19,419 bases of DNA from a virus. Its lineage: Duplodnaviria > Heunggongvirae > Uroviricota > Caudoviricetes. A model generated the notes under the pieces. The model made no database searches, was not told where the DNA came from, and saw only the letters and a list, made by a program, of their open reading frames with translations. Location: the IMG/VR virus record IMGVR_UViG_2645727562_000003, positions 1 through 19,419 of that record. One strand, 5' to 3'. A program made the translations under genes and the position numbers. Below, piece by piece: positions 1-18,951 of the stretch. Numbering within the stretch: the first letter of the stretch is position 1; each line of letters begins with the position of its first letter.

Positions 1-969
1 CCCAACTTCTGAGGCGGCCTGAGATTCCATACGAATATGTGCAGAAATATGCTCTCCAATATCTATTGGTGCGAACAGGCCTGTTGTACGGTCAATAGTT
101 AAGGGGAAGATAGCTGCGCTATCTGAGGATATGGTGACTTCACCTTCACAGAAGAACGTGTCACCATTTATGGAATAAACTTTACAATCTGACCATTCCA
201 CTCGCTTCATGCGAATAGGGTTTCGGTTGAGGATGGCCTGCTTAGCCAGATAATCCACTTCTCCACCGGTTGCTTTAAAGTTCAGGTGCGTAAATTCAAA
301 CGTACCCTCCCCCTCGTACTGCAACGATTTAAACAGTGAGTACAGATCACTGTCGAATCTCAGGGTGACATTTTTATCAATGATTACTTTACTGTTCGCA
401 AGGAAAGAAGCGTTAGCAGCTGTAGACGGTACGGTGTACACCATCTGATTTTTTGAATGATTAGAGAAGTAAACATACCCGTAGGTCGCAACACTATCGC
501 GCCACGCCTGGACTACGTTAGAATTATCATAACTTGGAATTTTTGTGATCGACTGCAAAACAAGATCTTCCTGTGAGATAGCTCCGTTTACCAGATTAAC
601 ACCTCCTTGAGATGCAAGATCTTGCCTGAGTTGGTCAGGGTCATACTTCAGCACATTCGAAAAATAGAACTGCTGAGCACCGTACGCATCATAAACAGCC
701 ATAGAATGCCCTTGTACAGTAACGAACTTAGCAATCTGTCCGTTATATACAGGGTAGCCAGCAGCGTTAATGATGATTGGTTGCGAAACAGGAACGTGAG
801 AGCCATCTTCGTTCTCCACATAAACCTGAATCTGGTTTTCAGGATTTACCGGGTCAGTGTCAATTTTACCGATATAAATTTTACCATTGGCTACGGCTTT
901 AAAAGAACGAGCCATAGTGAAGAGTTGCGAAGGCATGCTTACCACAACATTTGCGGTGATATCTGTCAT
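1..969 (-). CDS. Tailspike protein, partial (N-terminal 323 codons; gene continues past the left edge of the window)
   Basis: Minus-strand ATG at 967-969 with GGAG 8 nt upstream. N-terminus [43 protein letters not shown] matches the P22 gp9 head-binding domain from memory. I checked every in-frame triplet from 1 to 969 and found no stop. After YDPDQ the sequence diverges from the P22/Sf6/HK620 tailspikes as I remember them. Not in the ORF track because it has no in-window stop. Confidence 0.85.
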
Positions 970-1027
970 TTAATTTGCTCCAGATACAAGGAATCGCCGC
1001 AGCATGGCTACGGTGAATTTTGGGCAT

Positions 1028-1051
1028 AAAAAAACCCAGCCGAAGCTGGGT
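1028..1051 (-). terminator. Rho-independent terminator downstream of the KilA-N antirepressor gene, upstream of the tailspike gene
   Basis: Plus strand aaaaaaa-cccagc-cgaa-gctggg; on the minus strand this is a GC-rich 6-7 bp stem with tetraloop followed by a 7-U tract. Confidence 0.6.
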
Positions 1052-1069
1052 CGTTGCGTTGGTTATCTG

Positions 1070-1960
1070 TCAGTAGTTATGTACTGAAGGAGGTAATTCT
1101 TTATTCTTAAGTCTCATCCATGCGGAAAGATTCGTTGGTCCGTCTGGCTCATTAATATCAACATCTCGTGTATGGTTGATTAAAACATCTCTCGCCATAT
1201 CGATAATACGGGAGAACTCATAACCGCAGTCATGACATCTGCCGGAATAGTTCGATTGAATTTGTTTTAGCGCCGGATACAGTTCGCGGAATAACGCCTG
1301 TGAGCGGTTGGCATAATCCCATAACCATACAAGGCTGTTTGCTTCTTTTGCAGAAAGCTCGTTGGTTTTCTTCTCTTGTTTGCCGATGAATTCACCTTCA
1401 AGCACTACCCTGTGGATGTACTCTACGGCCAGCGGGATTTGTTCAATTGAAAGTTCATCAATGCTGTCAATACCAAAACGCTGATGAACCATATTGTATG
1501 CATCGTCATAGCGAAGTCCTTTCTTTCCTACCAGCATGTTTACTGCATCTCGTAGCGGCGTGCGTTCAGCTACTGAAGTTTTACCGCCAATAGCCTTCCT
1601 CTCTTGTGTGGCAGTAACCATTGCGTCATATGCGCGGATAACCTTCAGCGCAAATGCTGCGCTAATCCACATGGCGTAGGAGTAAACAAGCTCCTTGCAC
1701 ACGTATGTTCCACCATATCTACCTTTCTTAGAAATGACGGGATTCTTATTCTGCATATCCGCAGAATTAAAAATTTCATTAATCAATTCAATAGTTTCAT
1801 TTCTACGCATGAAGAAAGCTGGCTGATGTTTTTCCTCCTTTCCAGACGCTACATGAAGGTCATTAAGCGAGTAACGACCCTCTGAATCCATATGAATCTT
1901 GACGTCAGAAATGATGATGCTATTAGTGCAATTTACAGTTGACTTTGCTAAGCTTGACAT
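1070..1960 (-). CDS. KilA-N domain antirepressor-like protein (occupies the position of P22 ant)
   Basis: Motif [13 protein letters not shown] and surrounding region fit the KilA-N domain. Start chosen at ATG 1958-1960 (MSSLAKSTV...) with GAGG about 10 nt upstream; the track start at 2026 is TTG with a poor SD. Same strand and operon as the arc-like gene. Confidence 0.6.
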
Positions 1961-2022
1961 ATCAATAATACCTCGTAAGTTTTGTTGATACCGAAGCCCT
2001 GACTGTTCCCGCAGTTGGGGCT

Positions 2023-2226
2023 TCAACTTTCTGCTCTATCAGTTATATCTTTCCCTTCGTATACTTCACCTATATTGCTAATGCTGGCAGAACATCCAAG
2101 ATGCTTGTATCTTATGATGTCCAACACGCAGTCACTACACAGCATCCGACCTGTTTCTTTAGAGTAAATGTATGTTTGATCAGCGTCTGATTCGCTAATG
2201 CCGCAGAAACAACATTCTTTACTCAT
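2023..2226 (-). CDS. Cys-rich small protein (67 aa), possible zinc-ribbon; unknown function
   Basis: ATG start overlaps the arc-like stop as ATGA (translational coupling). Cys pattern CCxC ... CxxC (C5, C6, C8, C30, C33). Confidence 0.45.
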
Positions 2227-2363
2227 ACCATCACCCCCTCTCTCTTCAAGCTGTCCAGCACCCGTTTAATTACTTCTGCGCTAAACGATCGACACTCTTC
2301 CTTTGCTTTCTCTTCAAGGATTTTTTCTAACTTCTCTGGCATACGCAGTGTTTTTACCTTCAT
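2223..2363 (-). CDS. arc: Arc-like ribbon-helix-helix repressor (46 aa)
   Basis: [46 protein letters not shown] resembles P22 Arc in length and in the SxEV/I..RV..S.K.EG region. ATG 2361-2363 preceded by GGAGG at 5-nt spacing. The track start at 2429 is GTG and less likely. Confidence 0.65.
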   Translation of the reverse strand: MKVKTLRMPEKLEKILEEKAKEECRSFSAEVIKRVLDSLKREGVMV

Positions 2364-2375
2364 TGCATCCTCCGC

Positions 2376-2412
2376 TGTATGTGGTACGCATACATAGTAT
2401 TTAGGTACGCAT
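2376..2412. promoter_or_regulatory. Candidate operator repeats in the divergent promoter region
   Basis: Direct repeat GGTACGCAT at 2383-2391 and 2404-2412, 21 bp centre to centre. Imperfect inverted repeat TGTATG (2376-2381) / CATACA (2389-2394). The repeats overlap the start site, -10 and spacer of the minus-strand promoter. Confidence 0.4.
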
Positions 2413-2422
2413 TGATAGTCAA
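2394..2422 (-). promoter_or_regulatory. Candidate sigma70 promoter for the arc-like / Cys-rich / KilA-N operon (Pant-like)
   Basis: Minus strand reads TTGACT (plus 2417-2422), 17-nt spacer, TACTAT (plus 2394-2399). Predicted transcription start about 24 nt upstream of the arc-like ATG, so the GGAGG SD is included. Confidence 0.5.
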
Positions 2423-2440
2423 TAGACACCTACATATCCT
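2412..2440 (+). promoter_or_regulatory. Candidate divergent sigma70 promoter for the Mnt-paralogue / mnt operon (Pmnt-like)
   Basis: TTGATA (2412-2417), 17-nt spacer, TATCCT (2435-2440). Its -35 abuts the -35 of the minus-strand promoter, sharing 1 bp. Confidence 0.4.
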
Positions 2441-2468
2441 GTGGTAAAAAATTATTCAGGGTGTGCCG

Positions 2469-2726
2469 ATGTCTGATCGTAAGTACAAAAACCCTCAAGT
2501 GAATCTGAGGCTTCCTGTAGAGATAAAGGAACGTCTTATTGAACTGGCTGAGGCTAATTCTCGTTCATTAAATGCTGAGATGGTCGCTGCACTTGAAGCA
2601 TGGACCGAAAAAAATAAACACATTCAAGCACTAGACCTTGCAACTATAGCATCACGATTGATAGATCTTGAACATGATGTTGAGAAGTTGAAATGCATGT
2701 ATGGCAACAATAAAGACGAAAGTTAG
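2469..2726 (+). CDS. Ribbon-helix-helix DNA-binding protein with C-terminal coiled-coil-like tail (Mnt paralogue, 85 aa)
   Basis: N-terminus NPQVNLRLPVEIKERLIELAEANSRSLNAEMVAALEAW parallels the RHH region of Mnt (NFRMPLEVREKLKLRAEANGRLMNSELLQIV). ATG at 2469; the track start at 2463 is GTG. Confidence 0.55.
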   Translation: MSDRKYKNPQVNLRLPVEIKERLIELAEANSRSLNAEMVAALEAWTEKNKHIQALDLATIASRLIDLEHDVEKLKCMYGNNKDES

Positions 2727-2749
2727 AGATACTAACTTGGAGTGATGGC

Positions 2750-3001
2750 ATGGCTAGAGATGATCCGCACTTTAACTTCCGTATGCCTTTGGAAGTAAGA
2801 GAAAAATTGAAATTAAGAGCCGAGGCTAACGGAAGGTTAATGAACTCTGAGTTATTACAAATCGTTCAGGATGCGCTATCAAAACCATCACCGATTGCAG
2901 GTTACCGTGACGAAGCAGAACGCATGGCTGATCAGCAAGCAGAAATTGTTAAGAAGATGGTGTTTGAAACGCTGAAGGATTTGTACAAAAAACCCACCTG
3001 A
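2750..3001 (+). CDS. mnt: Mnt repressor (83 aa)
   Basis: MARDDPHFNFRMPLEVREKLKLRAEANGRLMNSELLQIVQDALSKPSP... is near-identical to P22 Mnt as I remember it. GGAG SD about 8 nt upstream of ATG 2750. Confidence 0.85.
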   Translation: MARDDPHFNFRMPLEVREKLKLRAEANGRLMNSELLQIVQDALSKPSPIAGYRDEAERMADQQAEIVKKMVFETLKDLYKKPT

Positions 3002-3017
3002 AGGTGGGTTAATTTTT
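2991..3017 (+). terminator. Rho-independent terminator after mnt
   Basis: Stem aacccacc (2991-2998), loop tgaa, stem ggtgggtt (3003-3010), then aattttt. The mnt stop codon sits in the loop. Confidence 0.6.
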
Positions 3018-3066
3018 GCATTTACCTGGGCCATATTGACTACTTATAAAATGAGATCAATATTTA
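3016..3066 (+). promoter_or_regulatory. Candidate promoter for the YjzC-like moron gene
   Basis: TTGACT at 3036-3041 is a good -35. Possible -10 elements (AATATT 3059-3064, TATAAA 3045-3050) are imperfect or badly spaced, so the exact promoter is unresolved. Confidence 0.3.
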
Positions 3067-3100
3067 ATCGCCCAATAACGGGTGTATGTTGAGGTATATC

Positions 3101-3280
3101 ATGGCGAAAAAACCAGGTGAAAACACAGGAAAAAACGGCGGAATATACCAAGAAGTTGGCCCACGCGGCGGTAAGAAAGACAATTTTGCAACCGTCAAGG
3201 ACAACGAAAGGCTTCCACCAACAACAAAGCCAGGTCATGGCTGGGTATTGGATAAGCGAACTCCAGACAGCAAAAAGTAA
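3101..3280 (+). CDS. YjzC-like small protein (59 aa)
   Basis: MAKKPGENTGKNGGIYQEVGPRGGKKDNFATVKDNERLPPTTKPGHGWVLDKRTPDSKK; the pattern KPG..NGG.Y.EVG ... P.T ... W resembles the YjzC-like family from memory. ATG 3101 preceded by GAGG at 6-nt spacing; the track start at 3086 is TTG. Followed by its own terminator. Confidence 0.6.
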   Translation: MAKKPGENTGKNGGIYQEVGPRGGKKDNFATVKDNERLPPTTKPGHGWVLDKRTPDSKK

Positions 3281-3286
3281 TAATCA

Positions 3287-3308
3287 AGCCGGGTCACTCC
3301 GGCTTTTT
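3287..3308 (+). terminator. Rho-independent terminator after the YjzC-like gene
   Basis: agccgg(g)-tcac-ccggct followed by tttt at 3305-3308. The hairpin overlaps the stop codon of the convergent minus-strand gene. Confidence 0.55.
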
Positions 3309-3659
3309 GATATGTCGCTCGCAGAACTCAACAAGCCTGCTCATTAAGTAGCAGTAAGTCTCGTTGGCTCTTCCTGGTTCAACATCAACACCTACCCTTG
3401 AGCAGATATCGAATGCCATGTGAGCGCACTCATGGGCAATAGTAGATAGTTTGCCATTGAACACGCCTATCACATGCAAAACACCATTCTCGCTACTCAC
3501 TGTATGAGACGCTCCGTTGGCGTCCGAGTCATGCACGTCAACGCCAAGTTTTTGATGCAGGCGTTGCCATTCTGGAAAGTCTCTACAAAACACAATTATA
3601 CCGCTCTCAAAGAGCGGAACGAGCATCTTTGGTACGTTTCCAATGTTAACTTTTTTCAT
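3294..3659 (-). CDS. Small HExxH-motif protein (121 aa), putative minimal ImmA/IrrE-like zinc metallopeptidase
   Basis: Motif TIAHECAHM followed 13 residues later by E-PGR-ANETYCYLM, resembling the ImmA/IrrE HExxH ... ExxANxFxxxLL signature. ATG 3657-3659 with AGGA at 4-nt spacing; the track start at 3698 is TTG with no SD. Overlaps an antisense plus-strand reading frame (3474-3689), so the assignment is tentative. Confidence 0.45.
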   Translation of the reverse strand: MKKVNIGNVPKMLVPLFESGIIVFCRDFPEWQRLHQKLGVDVHDSDANGASHTVSSENGVLHVIGVFNGKLSTIAHECAHMAFDICSRVGVDVEPGRANETYCYLMSRLVEFCERHIKKPE

Positions 3660-3689
3660 GGTATCCTGAGCAAAACTAAGGAGGTTGGT

Positions 3690-4079
3690 GTGAAGCAATT
3701 TCTTACTGCTATGTTCTTATTCATATCTTTTGGGGCTACAGCAGAGTGCTGGGTCGTTGGAGATATGCGCGGAATAAGCTATTCAGAACGAAATAATTTC
3801 CATCCGGAAGAAGATGGTTTTAGTGGAACATTCATCATTAAGACAAACGGTGAAGATGCCAGCATCACATATTCTGGGACAGATGCGGGCGGCATGGCTT
3901 ACAAAGCATTGTCTAAAAACTCCATCATAGGAATCGGCGCGAATGGCGAAACTCAACGCGTTATCGACTCATGGGTAATACATCCTACTGGAACAGTTTT
4001 AATGTCAAAAACCATTTCCGGTTATGGAAATATGGATTCAACCAAAGCTTTTGTTGGAAAAGTAAAAAGAAAATGTTAG
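3690..4079 (+). CDS. Secreted/periplasmic protein (129 aa precursor, predicted signal peptidase I signal peptide), unknown function
   Basis: AAGGAGG (3678-3684) 5 nt upstream of GTG 3690. N-terminus MKQFLTAMFLFISFGATA followed by ECWVVG is a canonical signal peptide (basic n-region, hydrophobic core, A-x-A site). Mature protein is Gly/Ser/Thr-rich with Cys at both ends. The track's 201-aa version from ATG 3474 lacks an SD and runs antisense through the HExxH gene. Confidence 0.55.
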   Translation: MKQFLTAMFLFISFGATAECWVVGDMRGISYSERNNFHPEEDGFSGTFIIKTNGEDASITYSGTDAGGMAYKALSKNSIIGIGANGETQRVIDSWVIHPTGTVLMSKTISGYGNMDSTKAFVGKVKRKC

Positions 4080-4103
4080 CGATTGAATCCAATTTCCCAT
4101 ACG

Positions 4104-6014
4104 TTACTGCTGTGTTGCCTCAGTGGCAAGCAGCGGCCTGATGGCATTCGCAGCGTTATTCAGCGTTCTTTCATAGGCTGGCGTTCCTGCTTTGGTGTTT
4201 GCCAGACGTAAGAGAGCATTCCTTGCTGCTTTGGACTCATACAAGCGCATGATTGCACCGAAACCAGATTCAAGCGCCAGTGTTGCCCCAAGAGTCGCAG
4301 TTGCGCCAATCGTCCTTATCCTGTTGGCTTGCGATTGCCCTGTCTGAGTTACAACATTTGCGATGTCTGACCTTGCTGTTTGCTGTAGAACTTCATGAAG
4401 AGCATCAAGCTCTTTCATGTGTCTCCCACTGAATATCGTGTTATAGATCTGACCGTCAGATTGCGACTTCAACTTATTTAACTCGGTAAGAAATTTTGTT
4501 GGCGAGTCTCCTGCCTTTTCTGCAATCTTGCTAATATAAGCAGCACGCATAGCGTTCTTTCCATCTTCACTAAGAGCAGGCCATATCCTCTTAATATCTG
4601 ATGGTTTTCTGCTGAATACAACGCTGTTTATTAGCTCTGGAGTAAACTCTTTTTTAGCTTTGTTGAGATTGTTCGCAATCCTTTTATTGAGAACCTTATT
4701 GAATACGTTGGAGTAGTCAGAGTTTGCTTTGACGTATCTGGCAGCCTCTCCAGCCCCCAAATACCGTGCTGCGTTATTCCTCAAATCTGAACCCATTGCC
4801 CTCTCCACGGCATCAGTTGCGGCTTTCGCGCTATTAGGAAAAACCATGGCATCTCCCTGAATACTTTCCCTTAATGCTGACCGCAACTCTCTCAATAGTC
4901 CAAAATCTACATCTGGTTTAGCAAGTTCTTCTCGCAAATCGGATAGCCCGCGAATCAAATCCTTATTTGCCACTTTCCCAAGCCTGTTAGCCCTGGTAAG
5001 CACGTTGTCGATAACCTTAATGGATTTTGATGTGTCAACAGGTGTATCTCCCATTTTAGTTGTAATGTCTTCAATAACGCTTCCGGCTGAATCCTTCCTT
5101 GACTTCAGAGAACCATACAGATCGTCAACAACAACTGATGGGCTATATTCACCATATTTCTCAAGCTGTTTTTTAACTAGCTGACTTCTTTTTGCATACT
5201 GCTCAGCTCGCTTTGAGCCTGTTCCCAGCAAAGCCCCCTCAGCATCCTGAGTAAGACCACGAGTGAAAGCATTTTTCGGCGGGATTACATCAGATGTCAT
5301 TGGTGTCACGCCCATCGATTCTGATGTGGCAATTTTCTTCGCCACTTCTGGTGCAATATCACCTTTAAAGGCAGTTATTCCACGCTCAAGCCCTTTTGCA
5401 ACAGTATTAACAGCACCACCTGTTAGCATGCCAACACCTATATCTGTTGCCAGTTTTCCCGCATCATTTTTCTCACTGTTTGCGGCGAGCGATCCGACTG
5501 CGTTTTCTGCCAGAAGACGGGTTGCGCCTTGAGTAATTCGACCAGCAAGTGTTGGCGCCTGAGTTGAAGCGCCGCCAACGCCAACAGTAGCCAGGTAAGG
5601 CAATGCCTCCGCAAACACCCTACCTTCTGTCGTTTGTGGAGTCAGAGCACCTTGCTGAAGTCCAAACGCCTGCTCTAATCCCTGAGTTGTTACTCGTGGC
5701 GCTGGTTGATATGTTCCATCGCCAATACCGAGTTTACCGCCAGCCCATGCCGCCGCGCTTGTTACAGCATCGGCAACTGATGCTGGTATATTTGCCACAT
5801 TTACACCAGCCTGCACCAGTCCGCGACCAGTTTCTTTTACTGCTTCGCCGAGGTCAGACATAAATCCATCTTGCTGTTCTACAGGCTGCTTTTGGTTTTG
5901 AGTTGGTTGATTACTGGAGGACAGAATCTGAGCAATGCGACGCGCTCCTTCTGTATCGCCTGCCGCATCAGCGTTCCTTAATGCTGTCATCAACTGTTCA
6001 CGACTATAGGCCAT
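4104..6014 (-). CDS. Ejection (DNA-transfer) protein, P22 gp16 homologue
   Basis: 636 aa, Ala/Gly-rich, last of the three ejection genes in conserved order. GGAGGG SD; start overlaps the gp20 stop as TAATG. Confidence 0.8.
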   Translation of the reverse strand: MAYSREQLMTALRNADAAGDTEGARRIAQILSSSNQPTQNQKQPVEQQDGFMSDLGEAVKETGRGLVQAGVNVANIPASVADAVTSAAAWAGGKLGIGDGTYQPAPRVTTQGLEQAFGLQQGALTPQTTEGRVFAEALPYLATVGVGGASTQAPTLAGRITQGATRLLAENAVGSLAANSEKNDAGKLATDIGVGMLTGGAVNTVAKGLERGITAFKGDIAPEVAKKIATSESMGVTPMTSDVIPPKNAFTRGLTQDAEGALLGTGSKRAEQYAKRSQLVKKQLEKYGEYSPSVVVDDLYGSLKSRKDSAGSVIEDITTKMGDTPVDTSKSIKVIDNVLTRANRLGKVANKDLIRGLSDLREELAKPDVDFGLLRELRSALRESIQGDAMVFPNSAKAATDAVERAMGSDLRNNAARYLGAGEAARYVKANSDYSNVFNKVLNKRIANNLNKAKKEFTPELINSVVFSRKPSDIKRIWPALSEDGKNAMRAAYISKIAEKAGDSPTKFLTELNKLKSQSDGQIYNTIFSGRHMKELDALHEVLQQTARSDIANVVTQTGQSQANRIRTIGATATLGATLALESGFGAIMRLYESKAARNALLRLANTKAGTPAYERTLNNAANAIRPLLATEATQQ

Positions 6015-7399
6015 TACTGCCCTCCGAGATATTTGCTAATTAATTCGTCATCGGACAATTGCTGTTGAGGTTGGCTATCGCCATAACTTGAGGAAAGAAA
6101 GCGTTTTGCCGCAGAGTTCAATGATTCACCCTTCTTAACATCCATCCCCATGATGTTTCGGTTGCGATCAGATTGTCCTGGGCTGCCATTTGCACTCATC
6201 CACTCTGACCTAAACTCGTTGAACTTCGCGTTATTACTTTCCATTTTTGCCATACCCCTTAACCATCGAGCCATGACCATTGGATTATCCGTTTCGCTTG
6301 GAATGCCTTTCCTTGCAAACTCAATATCCTTATCTGATGCAGGGCCGGGAGGGAGAAGCTTGGTTGCCTGCGCATTGGCTAGTTGGTTGAATCTAATCCG
6401 CATATCTCGGAGGTAGTTATCTTGCCCCGTAAGCTTAGTGAACATATTTTCAGCGTTACCGAACAAACCAGGAGTTGGCTTCTCCTTCTCAAGCGTGTCA
6501 GCAAGCGTTGTCATTGAATCGGCAGCATTACGACTAGCTGCCGCATCACCTGCTGATTTTTCTATAGCCTTTTCCATGTTCACTGATAATTTTGGCGCAG
6601 CATTAATAAGTTCCTCGGCCTTCTTTTGTGCCTGTTGTACTTCAAAACCGAATTTCTGCTTATCAAGTGCCAGTCTTTCTGCTGCAAGTCCGTGTCCGGT
6701 CATTGCAGACTGATAGGAAAGGTTTTGCCCCCTAATAGCCCTCGCATTCGTCATGTCATTATTGCGAATGGTTTCGTTAATTCTTTGCTGCTCCTGCTGG
6801 CGACCAACCATCTTATCCTGAACAGCAAACGCCTTTTCTGGTCCAAGCGCACCGAGAGACATAGTAGTCAGCATGTGTGATAGCTGCTCTGGATTCTGGA
6901 TACCTGTCTGAATCATCCAGTCAGCATTAGCACCAACGCGATTTAACCTGTCCTTGTTGTCAGTAATGAATTTACTGTAGGCTTCCGGTCCCTGAGAAAG
7001 AGCGACGTTAGCCCTCATGGCTAAATCGCCCATATCGTTGCGTTGCTGCTCATTAAGACCTGAAAACGCCTGTTGTGCCTGTGCAACAAACGCTGGATTT
7101 TCCTGGGCAAACTTAAATAGTCCCGATGGATCACCAGAAGCCCATGCATCAGCGTGAACCTTATTGAACGCACTAATAGCTTTCTGTTGCTGTTCCTGAT
7201 TGTAAATATCAGCAACTCCAGCCAGACCACGTAACGCGGTCAGGCCAACGTTATTTGCACCTGAGCGAGCCAGTTCATTGTTTTCGCGGATCAGACCAAG
7301 CGTTGCGTTAATGTCGCTTGCCTTTGGCGCATTCTCATTTTGCGCACCGATGCCAGCAAGAAATCCACCAGAATTAATACCCTGTTGCCACGTAGCCAT
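6014..7399 (-). CDS. Ejection (DNA-transfer) protein, P22 gp20 homologue
   Basis: 461 aa; N-terminus [20 protein letters not shown]... matches P22 gp20 from memory; position between gp7 and gp16 homologues. Confidence 0.8.
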
Positions 7400-7409
7400 T
7401 GATTACCCC

Positions 7410-8102
7410 TTAAAACAACGAGCCAAGCAGACCAAGACCAGCACCGATACCAGCACCCCACGGAGTTGATAGCTCGAGAGCACTGGCTATGCCACCACCC
7501 AAAAGTGCACCGGATGCAGCACCACTAACCCCCTGCTGCAATGCTGACGGTCGGTTGGCGTTTGCCGCAGCCAGCGCCGCGCTTTGCTGTGAAATCTGAC
7601 TCATGTTGTTGGCATATGTTTGCCCGGCGTTTGCCTGTCCCTGAAGAGCGCCAAGACCGATATTTGCCAGGTTGTTGTAATTGTTCATTTGTCCAGATAG
7701 CCATTGCTGACCAAGCGTTGGTGCGATTGTTGCTAACTGATTACTGGTTGCGGTGGAACCCAATCCACCTGTTGCTTCCGCTGCAGCCAGACTCTGATAG
7801 CGAGCCTGACCAGCAAGATCTTTATACTGCTGAGAGTTGTAATACTGGTTAAGTGCCTGACCTTGCCCTTCCAGAGACGATAAGTTCTCAAGGCTGCCGA
7901 CATACTTCCCAGCCAGAGGAGTAAACGGCTTCAGGTTGTTCATGATGGTATTGAACTGCTGATTTTGCAGGTCTGCGGCATACTTCTGAGCTTCTGCGGC
8001 ATACTTTGCGCTTTTATCAGAACTGCCACCTTTCCCGCCTTTTTCATGGCAATAAGGTTCCTCGCCGCGCAGTTTTCTGCCCAGCTTAAATGCATATAAC
8101 AT
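7410..8102 (-). CDS. Ejection (DNA-transfer) protein, P22 gp7 homologue
   Basis: 230 aa; MLYAFKLGRKLRGEEP...KGGKGGSSDKSAKYAAEAQKYAADLQNQQFNTIMNNLKPF matches P22 gp7 from memory. GGGAG SD. Confidence 0.8.
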   Translation of the reverse strand: MLYAFKLGRKLRGEEPYCHEKGGKGGSSDKSAKYAAEAQKYAADLQNQQFNTIMNNLKPFTPLAGKYVGSLENLSSLEGQGQALNQYYNSQQYKDLAGQARYQSLAAAEATGGLGSTATSNQLATIAPTLGQQWLSGQMNNYNNLANIGLGALQGQANAGQTYANNMSQISQQSAALAAANANRPSALQQGVSGAASGALLGGGIASALELSTPWGAGIGAGLGLLGSLF

Positions 8103-8104
8103 GG

Positions 8105-8563
8105 CTATCTCCCGTGATTCAGGAAGTCGATTAGTTCTTCGCGTGTGGCGCTGTAAAATGTCACGTCATCCACGCCTTTGAAGTATTTCTTGATGGTTCC
8201 TACTCGCTTAAGGCCAATCATTGCGCAGTACATCTGCCCGTGGCGGAATTTGCGTGCAGCGAACGATGTGACGCAATGAACGGTGGTGTTAGTCAGAATG
8301 TATCGCCAGAACGCCAGACCGATTTCCTTGCTGAAGCCGCGAATCTCTGGCAGGTACATGGCGTGGCAATCAAAGGTTAGCGGCTGAATCTCCTGATAGT
8401 AAACAATGCCGCCGAACTGTCCGTGCACGTTCACCTCAAAGTAACGGCAATCAGGTTTGTAGTCGTATCCATCACCGTTGTTGCTCCCGGCAATAATGTC
8501 AGGGTGATTTCCGACTGCTTCGATCAGGTCGATGTTTCGCGTTGGTTTGAACTGAATCATCAC
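8105..8563 (-). CDS. Head/tail assembly protein, P22 gp14-like (assigned by synteny)
   Basis: 152-aa ORF between the tail needle and gp7 homologues; ATGA overlap with the needle gene stop. Homology was not recognised directly; the call rests on conserved gene order. Confidence 0.55.
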
Positions 8564-9408
8564 TGCTCCGCGATTATCTTGATGGTTGTGGCAGTAAACG
8601 CCGCACCATTTGACTGGATGGTTAACGTACTGCCATTTGTGGCAAGAAAGCCGTCTTTATCAACGCTAAAGAACGTAGCTAACAGGATGTTGTCGGTTGT
8701 TGTCGCCGAGTTGCGACTGCTTACCAGTGTGTCAGGAACAGAGCCGGAAAAAGTTAGCTGCATTGACCTGTTGGCGGTTCCGCTGGGCCACGTCCCGACA
8801 ATCGACAGCTTGAAGAACAGGGTTTTGTTCTCGTTGAACACAACCATCTTGTTGTTAACGGTGTCGAAGAATGGTGCCAACGTGCCGGATGACGGCGTGA
8901 GCGTTTTCAGCAGGCTAACAAGGTTGGTCGGCGCTGTCGGGATAGTTACAGATACGCCAGAGTAAACAACCTCTGATTTCTTGCGAGTAGTGGCATACTT
9001 AAGAGCATCGATGCGCGTCTCATGGTCTGAAAGCGTGTTTTGAATGGCGACAACTTCATCCGTCAGATAATCAATATCGTTTTCTGCTGTCGTTAATCGC
9101 GAATCAAGGCCGACTATCGCCGCTTCTGCGTTAGTGATCCTTGTTTCGTGGTCCTGTATCTTCGCTTCAGCCGATGCCAGTCGAATTTCGTGATCAACCA
9201 GAATCACATCCTGCTCATCGTTCCTGACCTGTGCATCAAAAGCGCCTTGTCCGGCCTCGTTGGCCTTGTTCGCCACATTACCAACATCAGCACCCTGTGC
9301 AATAACGTAAAGCAGATACGACTGCGAGAAGATATTGCGTGGAAGGATTGATGTATCGAGCCGCGTCGCCCGAACAATAACAGGTGTATTGAGATTCGAA
9401 TCCGCCAT
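8560..9408 (-). CDS. Tail needle protein (P22 gp26 family) with extended C-terminal knob, Sf6 gp9-like
   Basis: 282 aa; N-terminus [39 protein letters not shown] matches the gp26 N-terminal tip. The coiled-coil region is followed by about 130 extra residues, as in the Sf6-type needle, whereas P22 gp26 is 233 aa. Confidence 0.8.
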
Positions 9409-10826
9409 TACTCAATCCTTATCTGAGCACCAGACAGAGTGACAGGTGACTTCGTGATAACGCGCAATTTGAAGCCAATGTTTTTCCTGATGCGCCCTAC
9501 TCGCTTCCACAAAACACGTTTGTCGTAAACGAACGGTTCATTCTGCTCAATCATCTGCTCACGCCCGTAATTGATGCCGTCAGTGGTTGCAGAGAGAAAA
9601 AGGCGGTCAGCATACTGCGCAACGCCAGTTGACGACTCAACCTCAAGGTCGAACACTCTGGCGTTATCCGCTTTGAACAACGGAGTAAACAGCAGGTGTT
9701 CCTGTTGAAGACCATACTGACTGCTGATATCGAACTGCAATTTCCCGGTCACGGACTCCAGCTTATCGCCGCACGTTATCTGATTGCCTTCGTAAATGAA
9801 GTCGATAGCGCGGTACACATCGTCATACAAGCCAGTTTTCAACACACACCATTGCGGGCCATTGGCGCTTGAAGATGCGTCGTACACGAGGACATGACGC
9901 GGAAGGTGGATAATCAGCAACTCATGAGCATCAAATCGCAGAGACTCCATCACGCCATCAGCCAGTTCATCAGCAGTGTAGGAGCGGAGGATTTTCTCAA
10001 TGCTCGCGCTGGCGATTGGTGATACCTGACCGGAGCCGATGATGTATACAGACGGCGCACCTGTTGCCGGATTGCTGATGAACGCATACGAGTCAGCAAA
10101 CGGCGTTTTGCAGTAGGTCCCGGCAATGCCTTTCTGCACCATCAGCGATGGCTGGGCGACATACAAAGCAGCACCAACGGTGGTTGCACCAGTCAGGGAG
10201 AAATATTCAATCGTCGATGAACCAAAGCAGACGATGAAGTCTCGCCATGTCCCGATACCGATGATGCCGTCCGGCTGAGACTCGGCACGATATTGTGCGC
10301 TGTAACGGTCAGGATGCGATTCGTCTTCAAGATCAGTGATAAACCATGAATCAGTACCGTCTTTTGACCACGCATAACGCCCGCGTAAGCGCGTAATGTC
10401 ACGAACAGAACCTAACTCATACTGCGTGAATCCGCTGTCTGTAGGCCAGTTTGAGACGGTTTTAACCGTGCCATCATAGCGATACTCGACCAGTTGACCA
10501 TTAACGCCTACCGCCTGTGATGTCCGACCATGCGCCATTGATACACGACCACTTCCGGCGACATCACCAACCTCGCTTTCTCCTTTGTACAGTTTGCCAC
10601 CACACACGCGATAAACAGCACTCTGCGCCATGTTGTACTCGACGCCGCGCGATACACCGTTCACATCAGAACGTTTGGCAATGCCCGGGAATGAGCGAAG
10701 ATATCCGCTGCTGTTGAGGATTTCTTTGGGTGTAGCCAGCATATTAACTGGCAGATAGTCGATATAGTCGGCGTTTCGAAAGTCTTTGCCGACACCTTTC
10801 ATAAGCGGAAGTTGCTGAATCGGCAT
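9408..10826 (-). CDS. Tail hub / packaged-DNA stabilisation protein, P22 gp10 homologue
   Basis: 472 aa, the same length as P22 gp10; position between the gp4 and gp26 homologues; TAATG overlap with the needle gene. Confidence 0.75.
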
Positions 10827-10835
10827 TTATTCACC

Positions 10836-11297
10836 TCACGTACTCGGATCATCTTTCTCGATGTAAAACCGATTCCACGTAAACGCGCTTTTGTTACCAC
10901 TACCGCGAGGCATGTCATTTCGCCGCTCAAGTGGTGGTATTTTGGTTAAAGCGATGCAGATTGTCTGATATGCGCTGTCAGCAGCGGTAAGGAGAGCATC
11001 TGACGGCTGAATGACGTTATCCATGCACACTTGCACAGCGAGTTTCAAAGCGACGCCATCATTTGCCCATGCAGGGATACCTGAATCATCGTCAGGTAAC
11101 GGCATGATGCCGTTTTCTGTATCAGCAAACTGATATCCAAGCTCGATACCTTTCGCCTGCCATGCTGCCATCATGTCTTCGAGGTCATTAATGGCATCTT
11201 CTATTGCCTGAGGGTCGGCATCTGTCAACGTGGCATTGGAATACAGCCCGGCTTTTCGTAAAGCCTTAAGAACGAGATCACCCTTCGTTTTCGCCAT
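10836..11297 (-). CDS. Head-to-tail adaptor / tail accessory factor, P22 gp4 homologue
   Basis: 153 aa; N-terminus MAKTKGDLVLKALRKAGLYSNATLTDADPQAIEDAINDLEDMMAAW resembles P22 gp4. Confidence 0.75.
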   Translation of the reverse strand: MAKTKGDLVLKALRKAGLYSNATLTDADPQAIEDAINDLEDMMAAWQAKGIELGYQFADTENGIMPLPDDDSGIPAWANDGVALKLAVQVCMDNVIQPSDALLTAADSAYQTICIALTKIPPLERRNDMPRGSGNKSAFTWNRFYIEKDDPST

Positions 11298-11466
11298 CTT
11301 CTTCCGCCTTAGCCACTTTTTGCTTCATTGCGGTTTCTTCAGGAGTTTTTACCCAGCCTTTTTTCAGGTGAGATTTAACTTCTTCGTCATCAACAATGAC
11401 GTAATCGACAGCAAACTGACCACAGGTGATCATGTTGCCAGGCTTATAGAGCATTGTTCGTGCCAT
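11278..11466 (-). CDS. Small hypothetical protein (62 aa) between coat and gp4-like genes, in the position of Sf6 gp6
   Basis: ATG 11464-11466 preceded by GGGAGAAG, immediately downstream of the coat terminator. The track start (11505) is an upstream extension into the terminator. Confidence 0.45.
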   Translation of the reverse strand: MARTMLYKPGNMITCGQFAVDYVIVDDEEVKSHLKKGWVKTPEETAMKQKVAKAEEDGENEG

Positions 11467-11477
11467 TGTCTTCTCCC

Positions 11478-11500
11478 AATAAAAATGGGGCCGAAGCCCC
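11478..11500 (-). terminator. Intrinsic terminator (probably partial) immediately after the coat gene
   Basis: Minus-strand RNA GGGGC-UUCG-GCCCC (UUCG tetraloop) followed by AUUUUUAUU; lies 7 nt after the coat stop and before the next gene's SD. Confidence 0.6.
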
Positions 11501-11507
11501 ACCAAAA

Positions 11508-12761
11508 TTACTGCCCGGCAATAACGATGCCCGTATATTCAGGAACCAGTACAGAGCAACCGTACAGAGTGGTGAAACGCGCAGTGGTTACACCTTTGAT
11601 GTGGTCGAAGGCGTAAGACATGATCAGCGTAGCGCCCTGCTCGGTGGTTGCTGTCATTACCTGTGGACCCTGACCAGTCGGGAACGCCAGTTTGCCGTAC
11701 ATCAGCTCAACAGAACCATCAGCCCAGAACAGGTTAGCAGGTGCTGCGTTCTTGTTGAGAATGGTGATTGCTGCTGATGCTGCCGGCTTGGCATCGACGT
11801 TTGCATATGGACGACTCGCAACATCGGCATTTTCAACAGGGAGAATCTTTGGAGAGATTGTTACGGTAGTTCCGCTAACAGCCAGAACACGGAATACCTG
11901 CGGTTGCCCGGTGGTATCTTTTGTGATCTGGTGTACGGAATTCACACCGGCAATGGTGAACGCATCACCAACCTGCAAGCCAGATGCAGATACCGTAATA
12001 GTCCCCTGTCGGTTATCAACTGGCATACCATTTAAATCTTTCGCTTCAACCTTGTGTTCAGGTTGGCCTGATACTGTCAAGGATTCAGTGCTTCCTTTCG
12101 GTAATCGACCAAAAATATCGGTCTTGTAGCTATCAAAGGAAGCAACCGGAGGGATCTGCGCTTTTTCGTATGCTGTCAGGGTTGCGCCCTGAGCATAGGC
12201 ACGGTGACCAAGCTCGCCTGCAAGATCTTTGTAGTTGAAGGGGTTCCAGAAAGAGCGACGGTTGATGCCCTGAGGTACACCAATCGCCGTCATGGTGGCA
12301 TCAATGCCTGCCGCACAGTTCCACAAATCACGGCCCTGTGTACCTGTGGTTGAGTCAGCCATCGTGATCACGTTAGTAGCACGCTGCGTGACCATGGAAA
12401 TCAGGTCAGAGTCAATCTGTGCAGCAAGGCGCATACCTGCGGCGCGACCAGCTTCAGTTTTATGTTCCGGGTCACGCATTTCACGCGCATCCAGAGTGTA
12501 CAGAATGTTTTTCGGCTCCTTGAACACAGAAGGAACAAGGCGCTGAACCAGTGCTGTAGGCGTTTTTCCGCTGAGGTCGAGGCCTTCCTCAATGTTCATG
12601 TGGTAATGCTGCGGACGATACAGAACATCACCTGCTCGCTGCATTGCTGTATCACCGGGACGGAATTTTTTAGCGTTACGGGAAACTACGCAGGCGGCCT
12701 CAAAGCCTTCAACGTAGTTTTCGAACATGATTTCAAGGTCTTTTGCTAATTGGTTAGCCAT
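11508..12761 (-). CDS. Major capsid (coat) protein
   Basis: 417 aa; follows the scaffold gene in the conserved order; length fits P22/Sf6 coat proteins (about 420-430 aa). Confidence 0.85.
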   Translation of the reverse strand: MANQLAKDLEIMFENYVEGFEAACVVSRNAKKFRPGDTAMQRAGDVLYRPQHYHMNIEEGLDLSGKTPTALVQRLVPSVFKEPKNILYTLDAREMRDPEHKTEAGRAAGMRLAAQIDSDLISMVTQRATNVITMADSTTGTQGRDLWNCAAGIDATMTAIGVPQGINRRSFWNPFNYKDLAGELGHRAYAQGATLTAYEKAQIPPVASFDSYKTDIFGRLPKGSTESLTVSGQPEHKVEAKDLNGMPVDNRQGTITVSASGLQVGDAFTIAGVNSVHQITKDTTGQPQVFRVLAVSGTTVTISPKILPVENADVASRPYANVDAKPAASAAITILNKNAAPANLFWADGSVELMYGKLAFPTGQGPQVMTATTEQGATLIMSYAFDHIKGVTTARFTTLYGCSVLVPEYTGIVIAGQ

Positions 12762-12779
12762 GCTTAATGCTCCGATAGG

Positions 12780-13673
12780 TTATTTTTTTGCCTTTTTAGC
12801 GGCGAAATACGGCGTCCAGTCACCAGTTTCCAGCGCCTTGGCTTTCAGTTTGTCGAGGTTGTTGATTACTGCGCCGTTGCTCCCCTTAACTGTCGGGGTT
12901 GTGGCTGCCGTGGTTTTTGCTTTTGGCATGATTCTGGCCTTCGATTCGATACGTTCCAGCAGACGACCAATTGCTACGGGGTTGGTAGCTTCTGCCAGTT
13001 GCTTGCGCAGTTCAGCGTTGCGACCAAGCGCCAGAACAACGATTTCCGGCTTCTCTGACTCAAACAGGATCGCGTTTTGTGTCTCGATGGGGATTTCCTC
13101 GAGTACGGCCTGTTCTGCTTCCTGATAGCCAGGAACCTTGAGAGCCTTAACACGTTGCTGATATTTGGATAATCGCTCTTGATAAGCAGCCTGAAGCTCC
13201 TGCTCCTTCTGCTTGCGAGCCATCTCCTGTTGCTGGTACTTTCCGTTATCATCTGCCCACTTAGCCATGCGTTGCTGATAGATTTCTTCATCGAAACCGA
13301 TGTCCTCATCATCCAGTTTTGGCATTCGCGGTGGTTGAGTGATTACCGGCTGCTGCTCGACGGTTTTCTGAGACTGACGCATCAGCTCTTTCAGCTCGCG
13401 GTCTTTCTCTTTAATCGTCTTGCGCAGGTGTTTTACCAGTCCATGCTCTGCGCTATCTTCGCTGGTTGGCGAATCCAGCTTTTCGTCACCAAAGTAGAAT
13501 TCCTGTTCTGATTCGTCGTCATCAGTTTCAGTAGCTTCCTCTGCATCATTGCCAGAGGACTCACTGCCATCTTCTGTTTCGACTTCTTCAGCCAGTTCGA
13601 CATCATCAGGAATCTGCTCTGACGCGTCGGTTTCGATTTCAACTTCTGGTGTGTTTTCTGCCATCTGGTCCAT
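12780..13673 (-). CDS. Scaffolding protein
   Basis: 297 aa, strongly acidic N-terminal region, charged coiled-coil-like middle (QQEMARKQKEQELQAAYQERLSKYQQR), basic C-terminus. Position between portal and coat. Confidence 0.8.
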   Translation of the reverse strand: MDQMAENTPEVEIETDASEQIPDDVELAEEVETEDGSESSGNDAEEATETDDDESEQEFYFGDEKLDSPTSEDSAEHGLVKHLRKTIKEKDRELKELMRQSQKTVEQQPVITQPPRMPKLDDEDIGFDEEIYQQRMAKWADDNGKYQQQEMARKQKEQELQAAYQERLSKYQQRVKALKVPGYQEAEQAVLEEIPIETQNAILFESEKPEIVVLALGRNAELRKQLAEATNPVAIGRLLERIESKARIMPKAKTTAATTPTVKGSNGAVINNLDKLKAKALETGDWTPYFAAKKAKK

Positions 13674-13763
13674 TTGTTACCCCTGTTTACTCGATGTTCA
13701 GCCCATCGGAAGGCAATAGGGTGCCAGGCCTCATAAAGACAGCCATTGCACGTTATGGGTTAA

Positions 13764-15962
13764 TTACTGCTGTGGTTGTTGCTGAGTTGATTTTTGCAGG
13801 ATGCTGCTGATGTCCATGCGCTGCGCATGACCCTGTGCCTGACTTTTCAGGACAAGCTCTGCATCAGCACGGGCATTGTCTCCTTGCTGTTGCTGGAACT
13901 GTCCGAGCAGTTTCAGAGCCTCGCGGATATCAGATTTCTGCTGACTATCGGCAGATGCGAGTATTTTCACAACATTTGCCGCTGCAACCTGAGCATCAGT
14001 CTGTGCCTGGAATGCTTTAACCTGAATGGCTGCCTGTTCGTTCTGCGCTTTCTGCAATTCAGCCTGACCAGCAAGAAGCTGACCTTGCGCAGCAACCATA
14101 GCCGGATCTGGCTGACTGGCCTGTTGTTGTTTCGCCTGCTCAACCATCTTCTGTTCTTCTGGTGTTCTCGGCTTGATAACTCCAGACAGAAGCAACTGAT
14201 TGCGGTTGTATTCTTTAAGGTCGTCCATCCCTTCGCCGTCCATATTGTCGAGAATCATCGACGATACAAGGTCGTGCTTCGGCGTTCCTGGTGGGATAAG
14301 TGCCAGCATGGAAAGTAACGACTTAACCGTTGCATCACGGCGAGTAGCGAACGACTGACCGACATCGACAGTCACTTCATAGTTGCCCTGCGAAAGGTCA
14401 TTAAGCGCGATAACCTGCCCTGTCTGACGGTCAACCACTTCACCAGTCATCAGCGCCACGTCATCGCTGCCGTCCTCATTAACGATACGCATCGGCGTAT
14501 CACTGCCATAGACCTCACGCGCCATAGAAAGCCACACAACGCCAGCGCGACGCATGGATTTAGCCATGTTGTCCATGTAGATATAGGACTGCGTATCCAT
14601 CCGGTTAAAGATGCTATCAACGGTATCGGTGGCGACGTTGCTCGGCATGTTCTCAAGCTGCGACGCACCTGTAATTTGCTGAATAGCCGTTCCGGTGTAC
14701 TGCAATAGCCCGGCAAGAGCTGGAGGCATTTGTGTCGGAGGCGTATAACTGCTGACCTGAGCCTGCGCAGTAATATCTCCGTTTTTGTTTTTCAGACTGA
14801 CCATCGGCAGGAACGCCGGGCGCTTTTTGTTGCGCTCCGCCCAATGAGTGGCGAGAGGACCAGGAATCATGTCAACATCAACTACAGGAATGCCATCACC
14901 GCCAGCCTGAGTAGCGTTATCTGCAATCATGGAAACCATCAGGTTCTCAAGACGCTGTGCATCCATCGCTTTTGCTGCGTGGCCTTCGATTCGCTCCTGA
15001 TTATCAACAAATGAACGACGCCCATATACCGGGATGAGAGGAATATGTTCGCCCGGAATGCGCTTCGGTTCTTCCAGCCATTCAGCGCCAGACAGAAGAC
15101 CGCAATAAACGCGGCGTTTCTTCACCGTTCTCTCACCGATCAGTTCGAATGCACCATCGGTTAGCTCGTCGACAATATCTTTGATTTGCTCTTCATCATA
15201 GATTGCCGTTTCTCCGCTAACAGGGTTGCGCCACGCCGTGAGCTTCACCTTCTCTATGCGGACTTCATAGTAGCGACCAACATAGATAGCATCAGGAGTT
15301 GACCAGTCATATTGAGTGCCAGTGTCATCACGAGAAAGACTTGCCGCGATGGAATCAGGGTATTCAGCCTCGAACGCTTTAGGCGTCATGGAGAACATTT
15401 CCATAGCCCACATAGCATCAGAGCGGTCATATTGCTTGCTGTCCTGATCGAAGAAGACGCATGTCGCTGGGTCGTAAACAGGAAGAAGGCTGATGCGTCG
15501 CTGCTCGTTACTCGGATCCATTTCATCTTCGTAATCGGCACACATGCGGAAACAACCGAATCCGCCCGTTACAGCATCATCAAATGCGTTATCACACGCT
15601 TCGCCACCTGATGTTTCCTGATAGTCAGCGCGGAATTTGCCGTTCATTTTTTCGGCTAACGCTTCCGATGCCTTGTCATCCTTCGGCCTGAATTTAACGC
15701 TGATGCGATTCTGTCGATACTCGCCAATGATGCGATCACATTCACGGGCAATCTTATTTAGTTCAAAGCGCGGGTAATGCTCAAACCTGCCTTCATCAAA
15801 TGAGTAACCAGCGTTTGTGCTGCCTTCCCACTGTGCACCGGACACCCTGACGAAACGTTGAGCCTCAATAATCTGCTCACGCATATCCTGCGTTGCTGAC
15901 CAGGCATTATCAAAGTTGCACAGCACCTTGCGATGCCAGTCAGTCATCTTTTTTTCTGCCAT
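13764..15962 (-). CDS. Portal protein (P22 gp1 family)
   Basis: 732 aa. Internal region KRRRVY...GEHIPLIPVYG and the Gln-rich C-terminal tail (...QAQGHAQRMDISSILQKSTQQQPQQ) resemble the P22 portal and its C-terminal barrel. Immediately downstream of the large terminase gene. Confidence 0.85.
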   Translation of the reverse strand: MAEKKMTDWHRKVLCNFDNAWSATQDMREQIIEAQRFVRVSGAQWEGSTNAGYSFDEGRFEHYPRFELNKIARECDRIIGEYRQNRISVKFRPKDDKASEALAEKMNGKFRADYQETSGGEACDNAFDDAVTGGFGCFRMCADYEDEMDPSNEQRRISLLPVYDPATCVFFDQDSKQYDRSDAMWAMEMFSMTPKAFEAEYPDSIAASLSRDDTGTQYDWSTPDAIYVGRYYEVRIEKVKLTAWRNPVSGETAIYDEEQIKDIVDELTDGAFELIGERTVKKRRVYCGLLSGAEWLEEPKRIPGEHIPLIPVYGRRSFVDNQERIEGHAAKAMDAQRLENLMVSMIADNATQAGGDGIPVVDVDMIPGPLATHWAERNKKRPAFLPMVSLKNKNGDITAQAQVSSYTPPTQMPPALAGLLQYTGTAIQQITGASQLENMPSNVATDTVDSIFNRMDTQSYIYMDNMAKSMRRAGVVWLSMAREVYGSDTPMRIVNEDGSDDVALMTGEVVDRQTGQVIALNDLSQGNYEVTVDVGQSFATRRDATVKSLLSMLALIPPGTPKHDLVSSMILDNMDGEGMDDLKEYNRNQLLLSGVIKPRTPEEQKMVEQAKQQQASQPDPAMVAAQGQLLAGQAELQKAQNEQAAIQVKAFQAQTDAQVAAANVVKILASADSQQKSDIREALKLLGQFQQQQGDNARADAELVLKSQAQGHAQRMDISSILQKSTQQQPQQ

Positions 15963-15963
15963 A

Positions 15964-17379: not shown

Positions 17380-17801
17380 TTTCCGAATAGAGTGCTCATC
17401 GGTGATGTTTCAATCTGGATTGCGCCGCCGTCTTTGCCGACAAGCTCATTAGTTACCTTGTCGCCATACTTACGGGGATTCATTCTGGCCAGCGCCCATT
17501 TGCGGGTATCAACGCGAAGTCTTGCCTTTGCCACCTCGGCGGCATCAGGGATTACGTCGTCAGCAATTTCGAATATCTCTTCGAAAATAGAGTCGGCCCG
17601 AGTCTCTGTTGCCTTCGCGTACTGGTCACGAAACTCCTGATGTTCAGCCAGCCAGCGAAAAACTGATGTTTTGCTCGGCATTCCTGGGCGTTCGCAAACT
17701 TTGCGCAGACTCTCACCGGAGGAAAGCAATGCGCAAATGTCATTAGCCACCTCCGGCATATAATCAGAGGGGCGACCACCTTTCTTTTTCTCAGTCGCCA
17801 T
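17376..17801 (-). CDS. Terminase small subunit (Sf6 gp1-like)
   Basis: 141 aa; MATEKKKGGRPSDYMPEVANDICALLSSGESLRKVCERPGMP... closely resembles the Sf6 small terminase as I remember it; translationally coupled to the large subunit. Confidence 0.8.
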   Translation of the reverse strand: MATEKKKGGRPSDYMPEVANDICALLSSGESLRKVCERPGMPSKTSVFRWLAEHQEFRDQYAKATETRADSIFEEIFEIADDVIPDAAEVAKARLRVDTRKWALARMNPRKYGDKVTNELVGKDGGAIQIETSPMSTLFGK

Positions 17802-18919: not shown

Positions 18920-18951
18920 CATTAAATTGACTTTGTGATTTGCAAAAAAAT

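Follow-up and report, generated by a model that had tools for sequence, protein, structure and literature searches.

The stretch of DNA considered here, 19,419 nucleotides of the IMG/VR virus record IMGVR_UViG_2645727562_000003 (positions 1 to 19,419; referred to below as the window), comes from a P22-like prophage of the Lederbergvirus type whose virion genes lie on the minus strand. On its plus strand, positions 3690-4079 encode a precursor protein of 129 residues, from a GTG start codon to a TAG stop codon (4077-4079), and the comparisons described below identify this protein as a full-length, distant member of the Hex family, of which Hex of phage 434 is the prototype. The gene lies in the genomic slot that is occupied in P22 by sieA, the product of which is an exclusion protein. 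It is poorer in guanine and cytosine (GC) than its surroundings, with a GC fraction of 0.408 as compared with 0.483 for the whole window. An initial annotation, made from the letters of the sequence alone, had described a near-consensus ribosome-binding site and a GTG start, and both are borne out: a Shine-Dalgarno sequence, AAGGAGG (3678-3684, plus strand), can be read 5 nucleotides before GTG 3690, within a leader element in which it is kept.

A longer open reading frame (ORF) from ATG 3474 was considered and rejected, as the additional 216 nucleotides are the antisense of a divergent gene and this upstream stretch is swapped at other loci for at least eight unrelated flanks. Because the leader and the GTG remain constant while the flanks vary, GTG 3690 is taken to be the start; of the homologues, essentially all of 82 members keep the signal peptide and about 64 of 80 IMG/VR loci keep the leader with its GTG, against the longer reading, which the initial annotation had named as the competing one. 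For the copy of the gene in E. coli SCU-124 (L006 9112-9480), the RefSeq/PGAP annotation begins at Met8 (122 residues) and loses both the GTG and the charged n-region; this start is probably too short.

The precursor reads VKQFLTAMFLFISFGATA, followed after the predicted cleavage by ECWVV...KVKRKC. Codons 1-18 (3690-3743, plus strand) encode a Sec-type signal peptide, MKQFLTAMFLFISFGATA, with K2 in the n-region, a hydrophobic core of 13 residues and A-T-A at the -3/-1 positions, in agreement with the textbook signal peptide of the initial annotation. The mature protein, E19-C129 (3744-4076, plus strand), has the expected 111 residues, and its terminal cysteines are its second residue (C20, codon 3747-3749) and its last (C129, codon 4074-4076). 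In 82 diverse members of the family, checked for signal peptides with positions measured relative to the invariant cysteine, the segment before that cysteine is 17-26 residues long, has a positive net charge in 80 of the 82 and contains a strongly hydrophobic window of 10 residues in every one. The position two residues before the cysteine is A, S or G in 72 members, and the position four residues before it is A, S, V or T in 65. Signal peptide and terminal cysteine pair are kept together in essentially all 82, so that, judging from these sequences, the signal peptide is a family-wide trait and not a quirk of the copy in the window. In the family alignment C20, G28, G123 and C129 are invariant and W95 nearly so, and about half of the family has a second, internal cysteine pair.

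With a shallow alignment, AlphaFold2 models the protein as an up-and-down beta-barrel of ten strands over residues 19-128 (predicted local distance difference test, pLDDT, 85.9; predicted template modelling score, pTM, 0.75), with a single N-terminal hydrophobic segment and the rest of the model all-beta. In a closed antiparallel barrel, strand 1 would begin beside the point where the last strand ends, and a barrel-closing disulfide between C20 and C129 is for this reason plausible in the model. A Foldseek search of the PDB gave no match at an expect value (E) of 1e-3 or below, the best being FABP/CRABP proteins and NHBA at a template modelling score of about 0.5, and a structure search of BFVD was uninformative. 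In relation to calycin-type barrels (FABP/CRABP, lipocalins, avidins, the C-terminal barrel of NHBA and the Cap15 barrel), there is likeness of fold class only, with 4-14% identity; they share no motifs with the product, and none among them is a specific best match.

An exhaustive HMMER profile search of 1.84 billion proteins, in clusters at 50% identity and with E <= 1e-3, recovered 126 clusters homologous to the product, 41 of them at E <= 1e-10 and nearly all of 120-140 residues, and a word-indexed search found 22 near relatives (46-100% identity), all of about 129 residues. When a second word-indexed protein search was made with the profile, the family grew by only a few members, none of them named, and the cluster entries read only 'hypothetical protein'. 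The product matches PHROG 2651 (E 2.9e-61), which is of unknown function; scans of the protein and its 82 relatives against Pfam, NCBIfam and PADLOC gave no genuine family match, and a search of PDB sequences with the family profile gave nothing below E 0.29. Three repetitive proteins of 597-834 residues (P0109, P0131 and P0141) show weak matches to the family profile in several stretches, and are probably unrelated beta-rich repeats. Of 5426 complete E. coli genomes, 115 carry the gene itself, which also occurs in the phages Emek and ST-35 and on at least 80 viral contigs of IMG/VR. Compared with the divergent allele L079, the mature part differs by 8 synonymous and 3 non-synonymous changes (ratio of non-synonymous to synonymous rates, dN/dS, about 0.10, from small counts), as is the mark of purifying selection at the sequence level; the signal-peptide codons are saturated with changes and still encode a signal peptide.

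Relationship to Hex of phage 434

When phage genomes were searched with tblastn, full-length matches at 27% identity were found in 434, lambda imm434, Sf6 (gene 38), HK446, HK633, Sf101, Chlobot and Huey, and those in 434, Sf6, HK446, HK633 and Sf101 span residues 1-129 with E from 2e-5 to 9e-5. Pairwise BLASTP to Hex gives E 3e-12, and hhalign gives a probability of 98.4% with E 8.5e-15 over 128 columns. The family profile also recovers P0048, which is 48% identical to Hex, at E 1.6e-13, and the 434 Hex fragment P0143 at E 4e-4. 434 Hex itself reads MIRIAALLSILLTTSANS, followed after the predicted cleavage by ECWIV...SFVGDVVGTCNQ. Like 434 Hex and the near-identical Sf6 gp38, the window protein combines its size and signal peptide with a mature start of the type x-Cys-Trp-(I/V)-V and an FVGxVxxxC end, and it has the architecture of the Hex family throughout, with a signal peptide, a cysteine near the mature N-terminus, a cysteine at or near the C-terminus and about 125-135 residues. 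In the record of phage Huey, the Hex homologue is called 'PagP', probably by mistake on account of a similar fold.

Both 434 hex and the gene in the window belong to temperate phages, lambdoid or P22-like, and occupy sites from which expression in the lysogen would be expected. The sites themselves differ: the gene at 3690-4079 lies in the sieA or 'ant moron' slot between gene 16 and immI, whereas hex lies downstream of cI, with which it is co-transcribed from PRM, as indicated by a read-through transcript detected by reverse transcription polymerase chain reaction (Shkilnyj et al. 2013, PMC3564112). Where the neighbour is annotated, the Hex homologues of other phages are likewise directly downstream of a cI-type repressor gene. 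P22 is excluded by Salmonella lysogens of lambda imm434 but not by hex- lysogens, and from this comes the name 'heterologous exclusion' (Susskind and Botstein 1980, cited in PMC3564112). The 434 record, on the other hand, names hex 'repressor protection protein' (L004 2429-2905).

The sieA slot and its leader

In a megablast comparison with phages, likeness to P22, HK620 and many of their relatives was limited to window positions 3600-3692. An alignment of P22 sieA, HK620 hkcB, Emek orf129 and the gene at 3690-4079 shows that all four share GGTATCCTGnnnAAAACTAAGGAGGTTGGTGTG, through the GTG, and that they are unrelated from the next codon on; the initial annotation was thus right to place the gene in the slot of a P22 exclusion gene. 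This leader of 33 base pairs (bp; 3660-3692, plus strand) is identical in P22, HK620 and Emek, ends in the start codon and contains the ribosome-binding sites of both divergent genes, its minus strand supplying the AGGA of the other one. It is kept in about 64 of the 80 IMG/VR loci of the gene, and the upstream DNA is of at least eight unrelated classes. In 13 of the 80, which form an allele class about 89% identical, there is another leader, with ATG, and the gene lies directly downstream of mnt on the same strand. At nearly all 80 loci, the gene is convergent on a homologue of gp16, of which there are several sequence types.

When IMG/VR was scanned for the 33-bp element, at least 79 instances were found before at least 12 unrelated ORF families. 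Among the matches listed, the leader precedes HkcB-like proteins (19), the Hex-like family (9), SieA (9) and nine other families, and 10-11 of the 12 listed leader-borne families begin with a transmembrane or signal segment. In one prophage (L036) the element is present twice, before two different genes. Since a fixed leader precedes many unrelated small envelope proteins, the slot behaves as a standard socket, and on the basis of these sequences the element looks like a plug-in leader and mosaic recombination joint for the morons of P22-like phages. That the 'ant moron' region is variable has already been described (PMC2629481). In the literature accessible to search, no discussion of the fixed leader or of a Hex-like occupant of the slot was found, and searches on Sf6 gene 38, on hkcB and on other genes of the slot yielded nothing beyond that 'ant moron' description.

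The slot also holds a 118-residue multi-transmembrane protein (L058 4623-4979), a 143-residue lipoprotein-like protein (L065 4642-5073), and, in L036, a 343-residue protein and a 149-residue membrane-anchored protein (4641-5672 and 5691-6215). In some prophages, stacks of morons lie between the Hex-like gene and gene 16.

Upstream of the leader is a putative promoter of the P_sieA type (3629-3659, plus strand), which is identical to the 'P sieA' of P22-pbi (L002 2530-2560) and overlaps the 5' end of the divergent gene, so that the promoter would lie where the initial annotation had predicted, inside that gene. From its sequence it would be a weak promoter. At Emek-type and other loci, the P_sieA interval is replaced and the leader is kept; within the leader, TGgTATCCT, an extended -10-like sequence, could possibly be a promoter element. 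In P22, sieA with 85 bp of upstream and 22 bp of downstream DNA confers full exclusion from a single chromosomal copy, and transcriptome data show sieA to be expressed at a low level in the lysogen (PMC10883804). The gene in the window is a candidate moron: related phages have sieA, hkcB or other genes in its place and its GC deviates, with a putative promoter ahead of it and, behind it, a hairpin that lacks a U tract but no canonical terminator.

The likeness to P22 SieA extends to the slot between gene 16 and gene 9, the 33-bp leader with its GTG, the convergence with gene 16 and the encoding of an envelope protein, and it does not extend to the protein sequence. P22 SieA is a protein of the inner membrane with 162-164 residues, for which three transmembrane helices are predicted (types B and C having a fourth), and it carries the motif FxRYPxEAxxFNK (PMC10883804), whereas the product of 3690-4079 is predicted to be a soluble exported barrel with no transmembrane segment beyond the signal peptide. 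P22 SieA matches PHROG 7745 (3.7e-108), in contrast to the window product, which matches only PHROG 2651, and a tblastn search with P22 SieA of the 80 related loci found nothing. Homology to SieA was rejected on these grounds, namely the other PHROG, the all-beta model and the lack of three transmembrane helices.

Neighbouring genes and other members of the family

The divergent neighbour is an hkcC-like gene (3294-3659, minus strand) that encodes 121 residues from ATG 3659 and matches HK620 hkcC in position; its start is separated from GTG 3690 by 30 bp, and its product has an HExxH motif (HECAH), both as first annotated. The product matches PHROG 1365 (unknown function), has no Pfam match and, from its motif, could be a small metallopeptidase. 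The gene is common beside the sieA slot. A bidirectional intrinsic terminator, AAGCCGG...CCGGCTT with a T run (3286-3305), closes both the hkcC-like gene and the mnt side, and is placed as are tORF59A/tMNT of HK620 and P22.

On the other side, the gene is convergent with a gp16-type DNA-ejection gene (4104-6014, minus strand) of 636 residues, to which gp13 of Emek, a 'DNA transfer protein', is equal in length and position. The initial annotation had counted 24 bp between the two stops and had seen no terminator there. The spacer (4080-4103, with the gp16-like stop at 4104-4106) has that length, and the terminator scan found no canonical intrinsic terminator 3' of 3690-4079, so that the statement holds for canonical terminators; it does not hold for hairpins in general, as a GC-rich 12-bp hairpin without a U tract lies at 4107-4136, within the last gp16 codons (RNA fold of 4060-4160, z -2.25). 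This hairpin may be a 3'-end stabiliser or pause site rather than a canonical terminator, and might be a 3'-end signal for the convergent moron transcript. The C-terminal peptide of gp16 encoded at this site, ...RPLLATEATQQ*, is kept across gp16 types that are otherwise different (L036, L058).

Further ejection-protein genes follow on the minus strand, a gp20-like gene (6014-7399) and a gp7-like gene (7410-8102). To the left of 3690-4079 lies an immI-type module with mnt (2750-3001, plus strand; Arc and Repressor_Mnt domains), further Arc-like ORFs (2223-2429, minus strand, and 2463-2726, plus strand) and an antirepressor-like gene (1070-2026, minus strand) with KilA-N and P22_AR_C domains. 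With three Arc-fold genes and an antirepressor-like gene, this module is richer than the mnt/arc/ant set of P22.

Elsewhere, a family member from Rahnella is flanked by a tail-fibre-like gene and an integrase fragment at the border of a P2-like prophage, and a metagenomic member shares its element with AlpA, a KilA-N/BstA_C protein and a DUF927 primase. A scan of genome contigs with the alignment of close relatives as query gave a single locus, in Symbiopectobacterium, adjoining an integrase gene. The S24-type repressor at L065 3299-3940, and its equivalents in L027 and L069, are 28-35% identical to 434 cI, and the order of genes there mirrors the cI-hex order of 434. The common theme of these surroundings is an accessory site in a temperate element, often behind the lysogeny repressor, which fits expression in the lysogen.

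A proposed role at the envelope and its rivals

From the established features (the gene, its signal-peptide features, family, slot, shared leader and fold class, and the purifying selection upon it), the following mechanism is proposed. The gene would be transcribed from the prophage by way of a promoter-leader cassette of the sieA type, and its product would be exported through Sec, signal peptidase I cleaving it behind Ala18. The mature chain of 111 residues would then fold in the periplasm to a small closed beta-barrel, the first and last strands of which are probably stapled by a C20-C129 disulfide, and this barrel would hinder a superinfecting phage at the envelope. Its likeliest target would be the trans-envelope genome delivery of P22-like phages, which is proposed because of the analogy with the slot-mate SieA and the exclusion of P22 by Hex. 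Export and disulfide formation are very likely to be as described, and expression in the lysogen can be regarded as probable, given the identity to the P_sieA interval of P22 and the functional 85-bp construct from that phage. A block at the step of DNA delivery, which is argued by analogy, is put forward tentatively and may well be wrong. The initial annotation had reached the idea of an exclusion factor from the slot and had missed the homology to Hex, which lends the candidacy independent support, with the function itself still derived from sequence. As a whole, the model of a periplasmic, disulfide-stapled exclusion factor expressed from the prophage is held to be slightly more probable than otherwise.

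Several points weigh against this model. Exclusion as the function of this particular protein is deduced from position and homology only, and its chances are about even; at 27% identity to Hex, the two proteins may have drifted apart in function. Exclusion by Hex is itself reported second-hand, in an account that cites it and describes no mechanism, whether entry block or abortive infection (PMC3564112). A sigma-70 consensus scan of 3250-4300 found no promoter, which makes the proposed promoter a non-consensus one, and the fold, as modelled, offers no clue to function. In L027, L065 and L069, moreover, a close homologue lies directly behind a LexA/cI-like gene of the S24 family in the immI region. 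The remaining points come from the sole mechanistic study of Hex, in which spontaneous phage release is 30-fold higher once hex is deleted, an effect that depends on recA (only in recA+), and in which sHex, a 6-kDa fragment comprising Glu43-Asn103 of a 158-residue ORF, blocks the RecA-stimulated cleavage of 434 and P22 repressors in vitro and, supplied from a plasmid, complements the hex deletion about 7-fold (PMC3564112). These data are the basis of the explanation published for 434 Hex, in which the protein or a fragment of it would bind an S24-type repressor in the cytoplasm, block its RecA-stimulated autocleavage and so lower spontaneous induction. The position of the gene right behind such a repressor in 434, Sf6, L027, L065 and L069 is the best remaining argument that the window protein acts in this way, but a requirement to be expressed in the lysogen, as with rexAB, would account just as well for a site behind a repressor gene. 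Most copies adjoin hkcC-like genes or mnt, which is of the Arc family and not RecA-cleavable, rather than an S24 repressor, and the distant members lie at the edges of P2-like prophages and of islands. A Sec signal peptide and an invariant terminal cysteine pair over 82 diverse members are also difficult to reconcile with a cytoplasmic protein. In the translated 158-residue ORF, Glu43 comes straight after ANS and so falls exactly at the predicted signal-peptidase site, between ANS and EC, and Asn103 lies in the middle of the barrel; therefore sHex corresponds to the N-terminal half of the mature domain, and a half barrel is unlikely to be the native species. Its activity in vitro may not reflect the native function. 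Over-expressed full-length Hex kills cells (PMC3564112), which is typical of overloaded export, and both this toxicity and the odd N-terminus of sHex would fit export and processing. The same study makes no mention of a signal peptide, the periplasm or the membrane (PMC3564112). Given the family-wide export signal and cysteine pair, action in the periplasm appears much more likely than action in the cytoplasm, and protection of the repressor is judged to be improbable as the role of this protein.

A periplasmic protein could also serve lysogenic conversion in a manner unrelated to exclusion, for example as a ligand- or lipid-binding barrel of the calycin type, as an inhibitor of lysozyme or another peptidoglycan hydrolase, or as immunity to a periplasmic toxin, and could in this way raise the fitness of the host. 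Of these, inhibitors of the MliC/PliC type were looked for specifically, and neither their Pfam domain nor their inhibitory loop motif was found. The only phenotypes recorded for any member of the family concern phage, and SieA, the one functionally characterised occupant of the slot, is an exclusion protein; conversion of this kind is accordingly seen as rather unlikely, if a more serious contender than repressor protection. An eight-stranded outer-membrane barrel (Lom, Ail, OmpX or PagP type) and a lipoprotein blocking a receptor (Cor, Llp or TraT type) were both tried and rejected, and their joint probability is very low. The 111 residues form ten strands, most of them with 5-9 residues and the last with 12, of insufficient length to cross a membrane; the chain ends in KVKRKC without an aromatic beta-signal, the terminal cysteines would form a disulfide, and no Pfam outer-membrane-protein family is matched. 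It is on account of this length, these strands, this C-terminus and the terminal cysteine pair that the product is read from the model as a soluble periplasmic calycin-like barrel and not an outer-membrane protein. As for a lipoprotein, the residue directly before the cysteine is Glu (A-T-A-E), which departs from the lipobox [LVI][ASTVI][GAS]C, and in only 6 of the 82 family members is this region lipobox-like.

Small exported proteins that block superinfection at the envelope are encoded by a number of phages, and include Spackle of T4, Llp of T5, Cor of phi80 and N15 and gp15 of HK97; Cor and HK97 gp15 are cited in the study of SieA (PMC10883804). Llp and Cor are lipoproteins, gp15 of HK97 is an inner-membrane protein and Spackle is helical. 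The product of 3690-4079 has no homology to any of them and differs from them in being, as predicted, an all-beta barrel.

With regard to the family as a whole, it is a speculative and on balance doubtful proposition that all of its members, including the prototype, represent an unrecognised class of periplasmic, disulfide-stapled beta-barrel exclusion proteins that act on the genome-delivery machinery of incoming phages. The cytoplasmic activity on RecA and repressor would then be a side effect of a non-native half barrel, and the leader would be a dedicated socket for the exchange of envelope-defence genes. What was found in the window is, by its sequence, a new member of a known, named and barely understood family, and its genomic position is new as well. 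The gene, annotated only as 'hypothetical', occurs in about 2% of complete E. coli genomes and in many Salmonella prophages, and its link to Hex provides a function that can be tested. The link also brings out a contradiction in the sole mechanistic study of Hex, where an exported protein is credited with a cytoplasmic activity, and the mechanism is likely to have been mislocalised. The sieA slot, for its part, would be a standardised socket with a leader that is fixed up to the start codon and that serves at least a dozen small envelope proteins; because it carries so many of these, the slot is a ready source of candidate exclusion factors, which would be of relevance to phage therapy and to competition between prophages.

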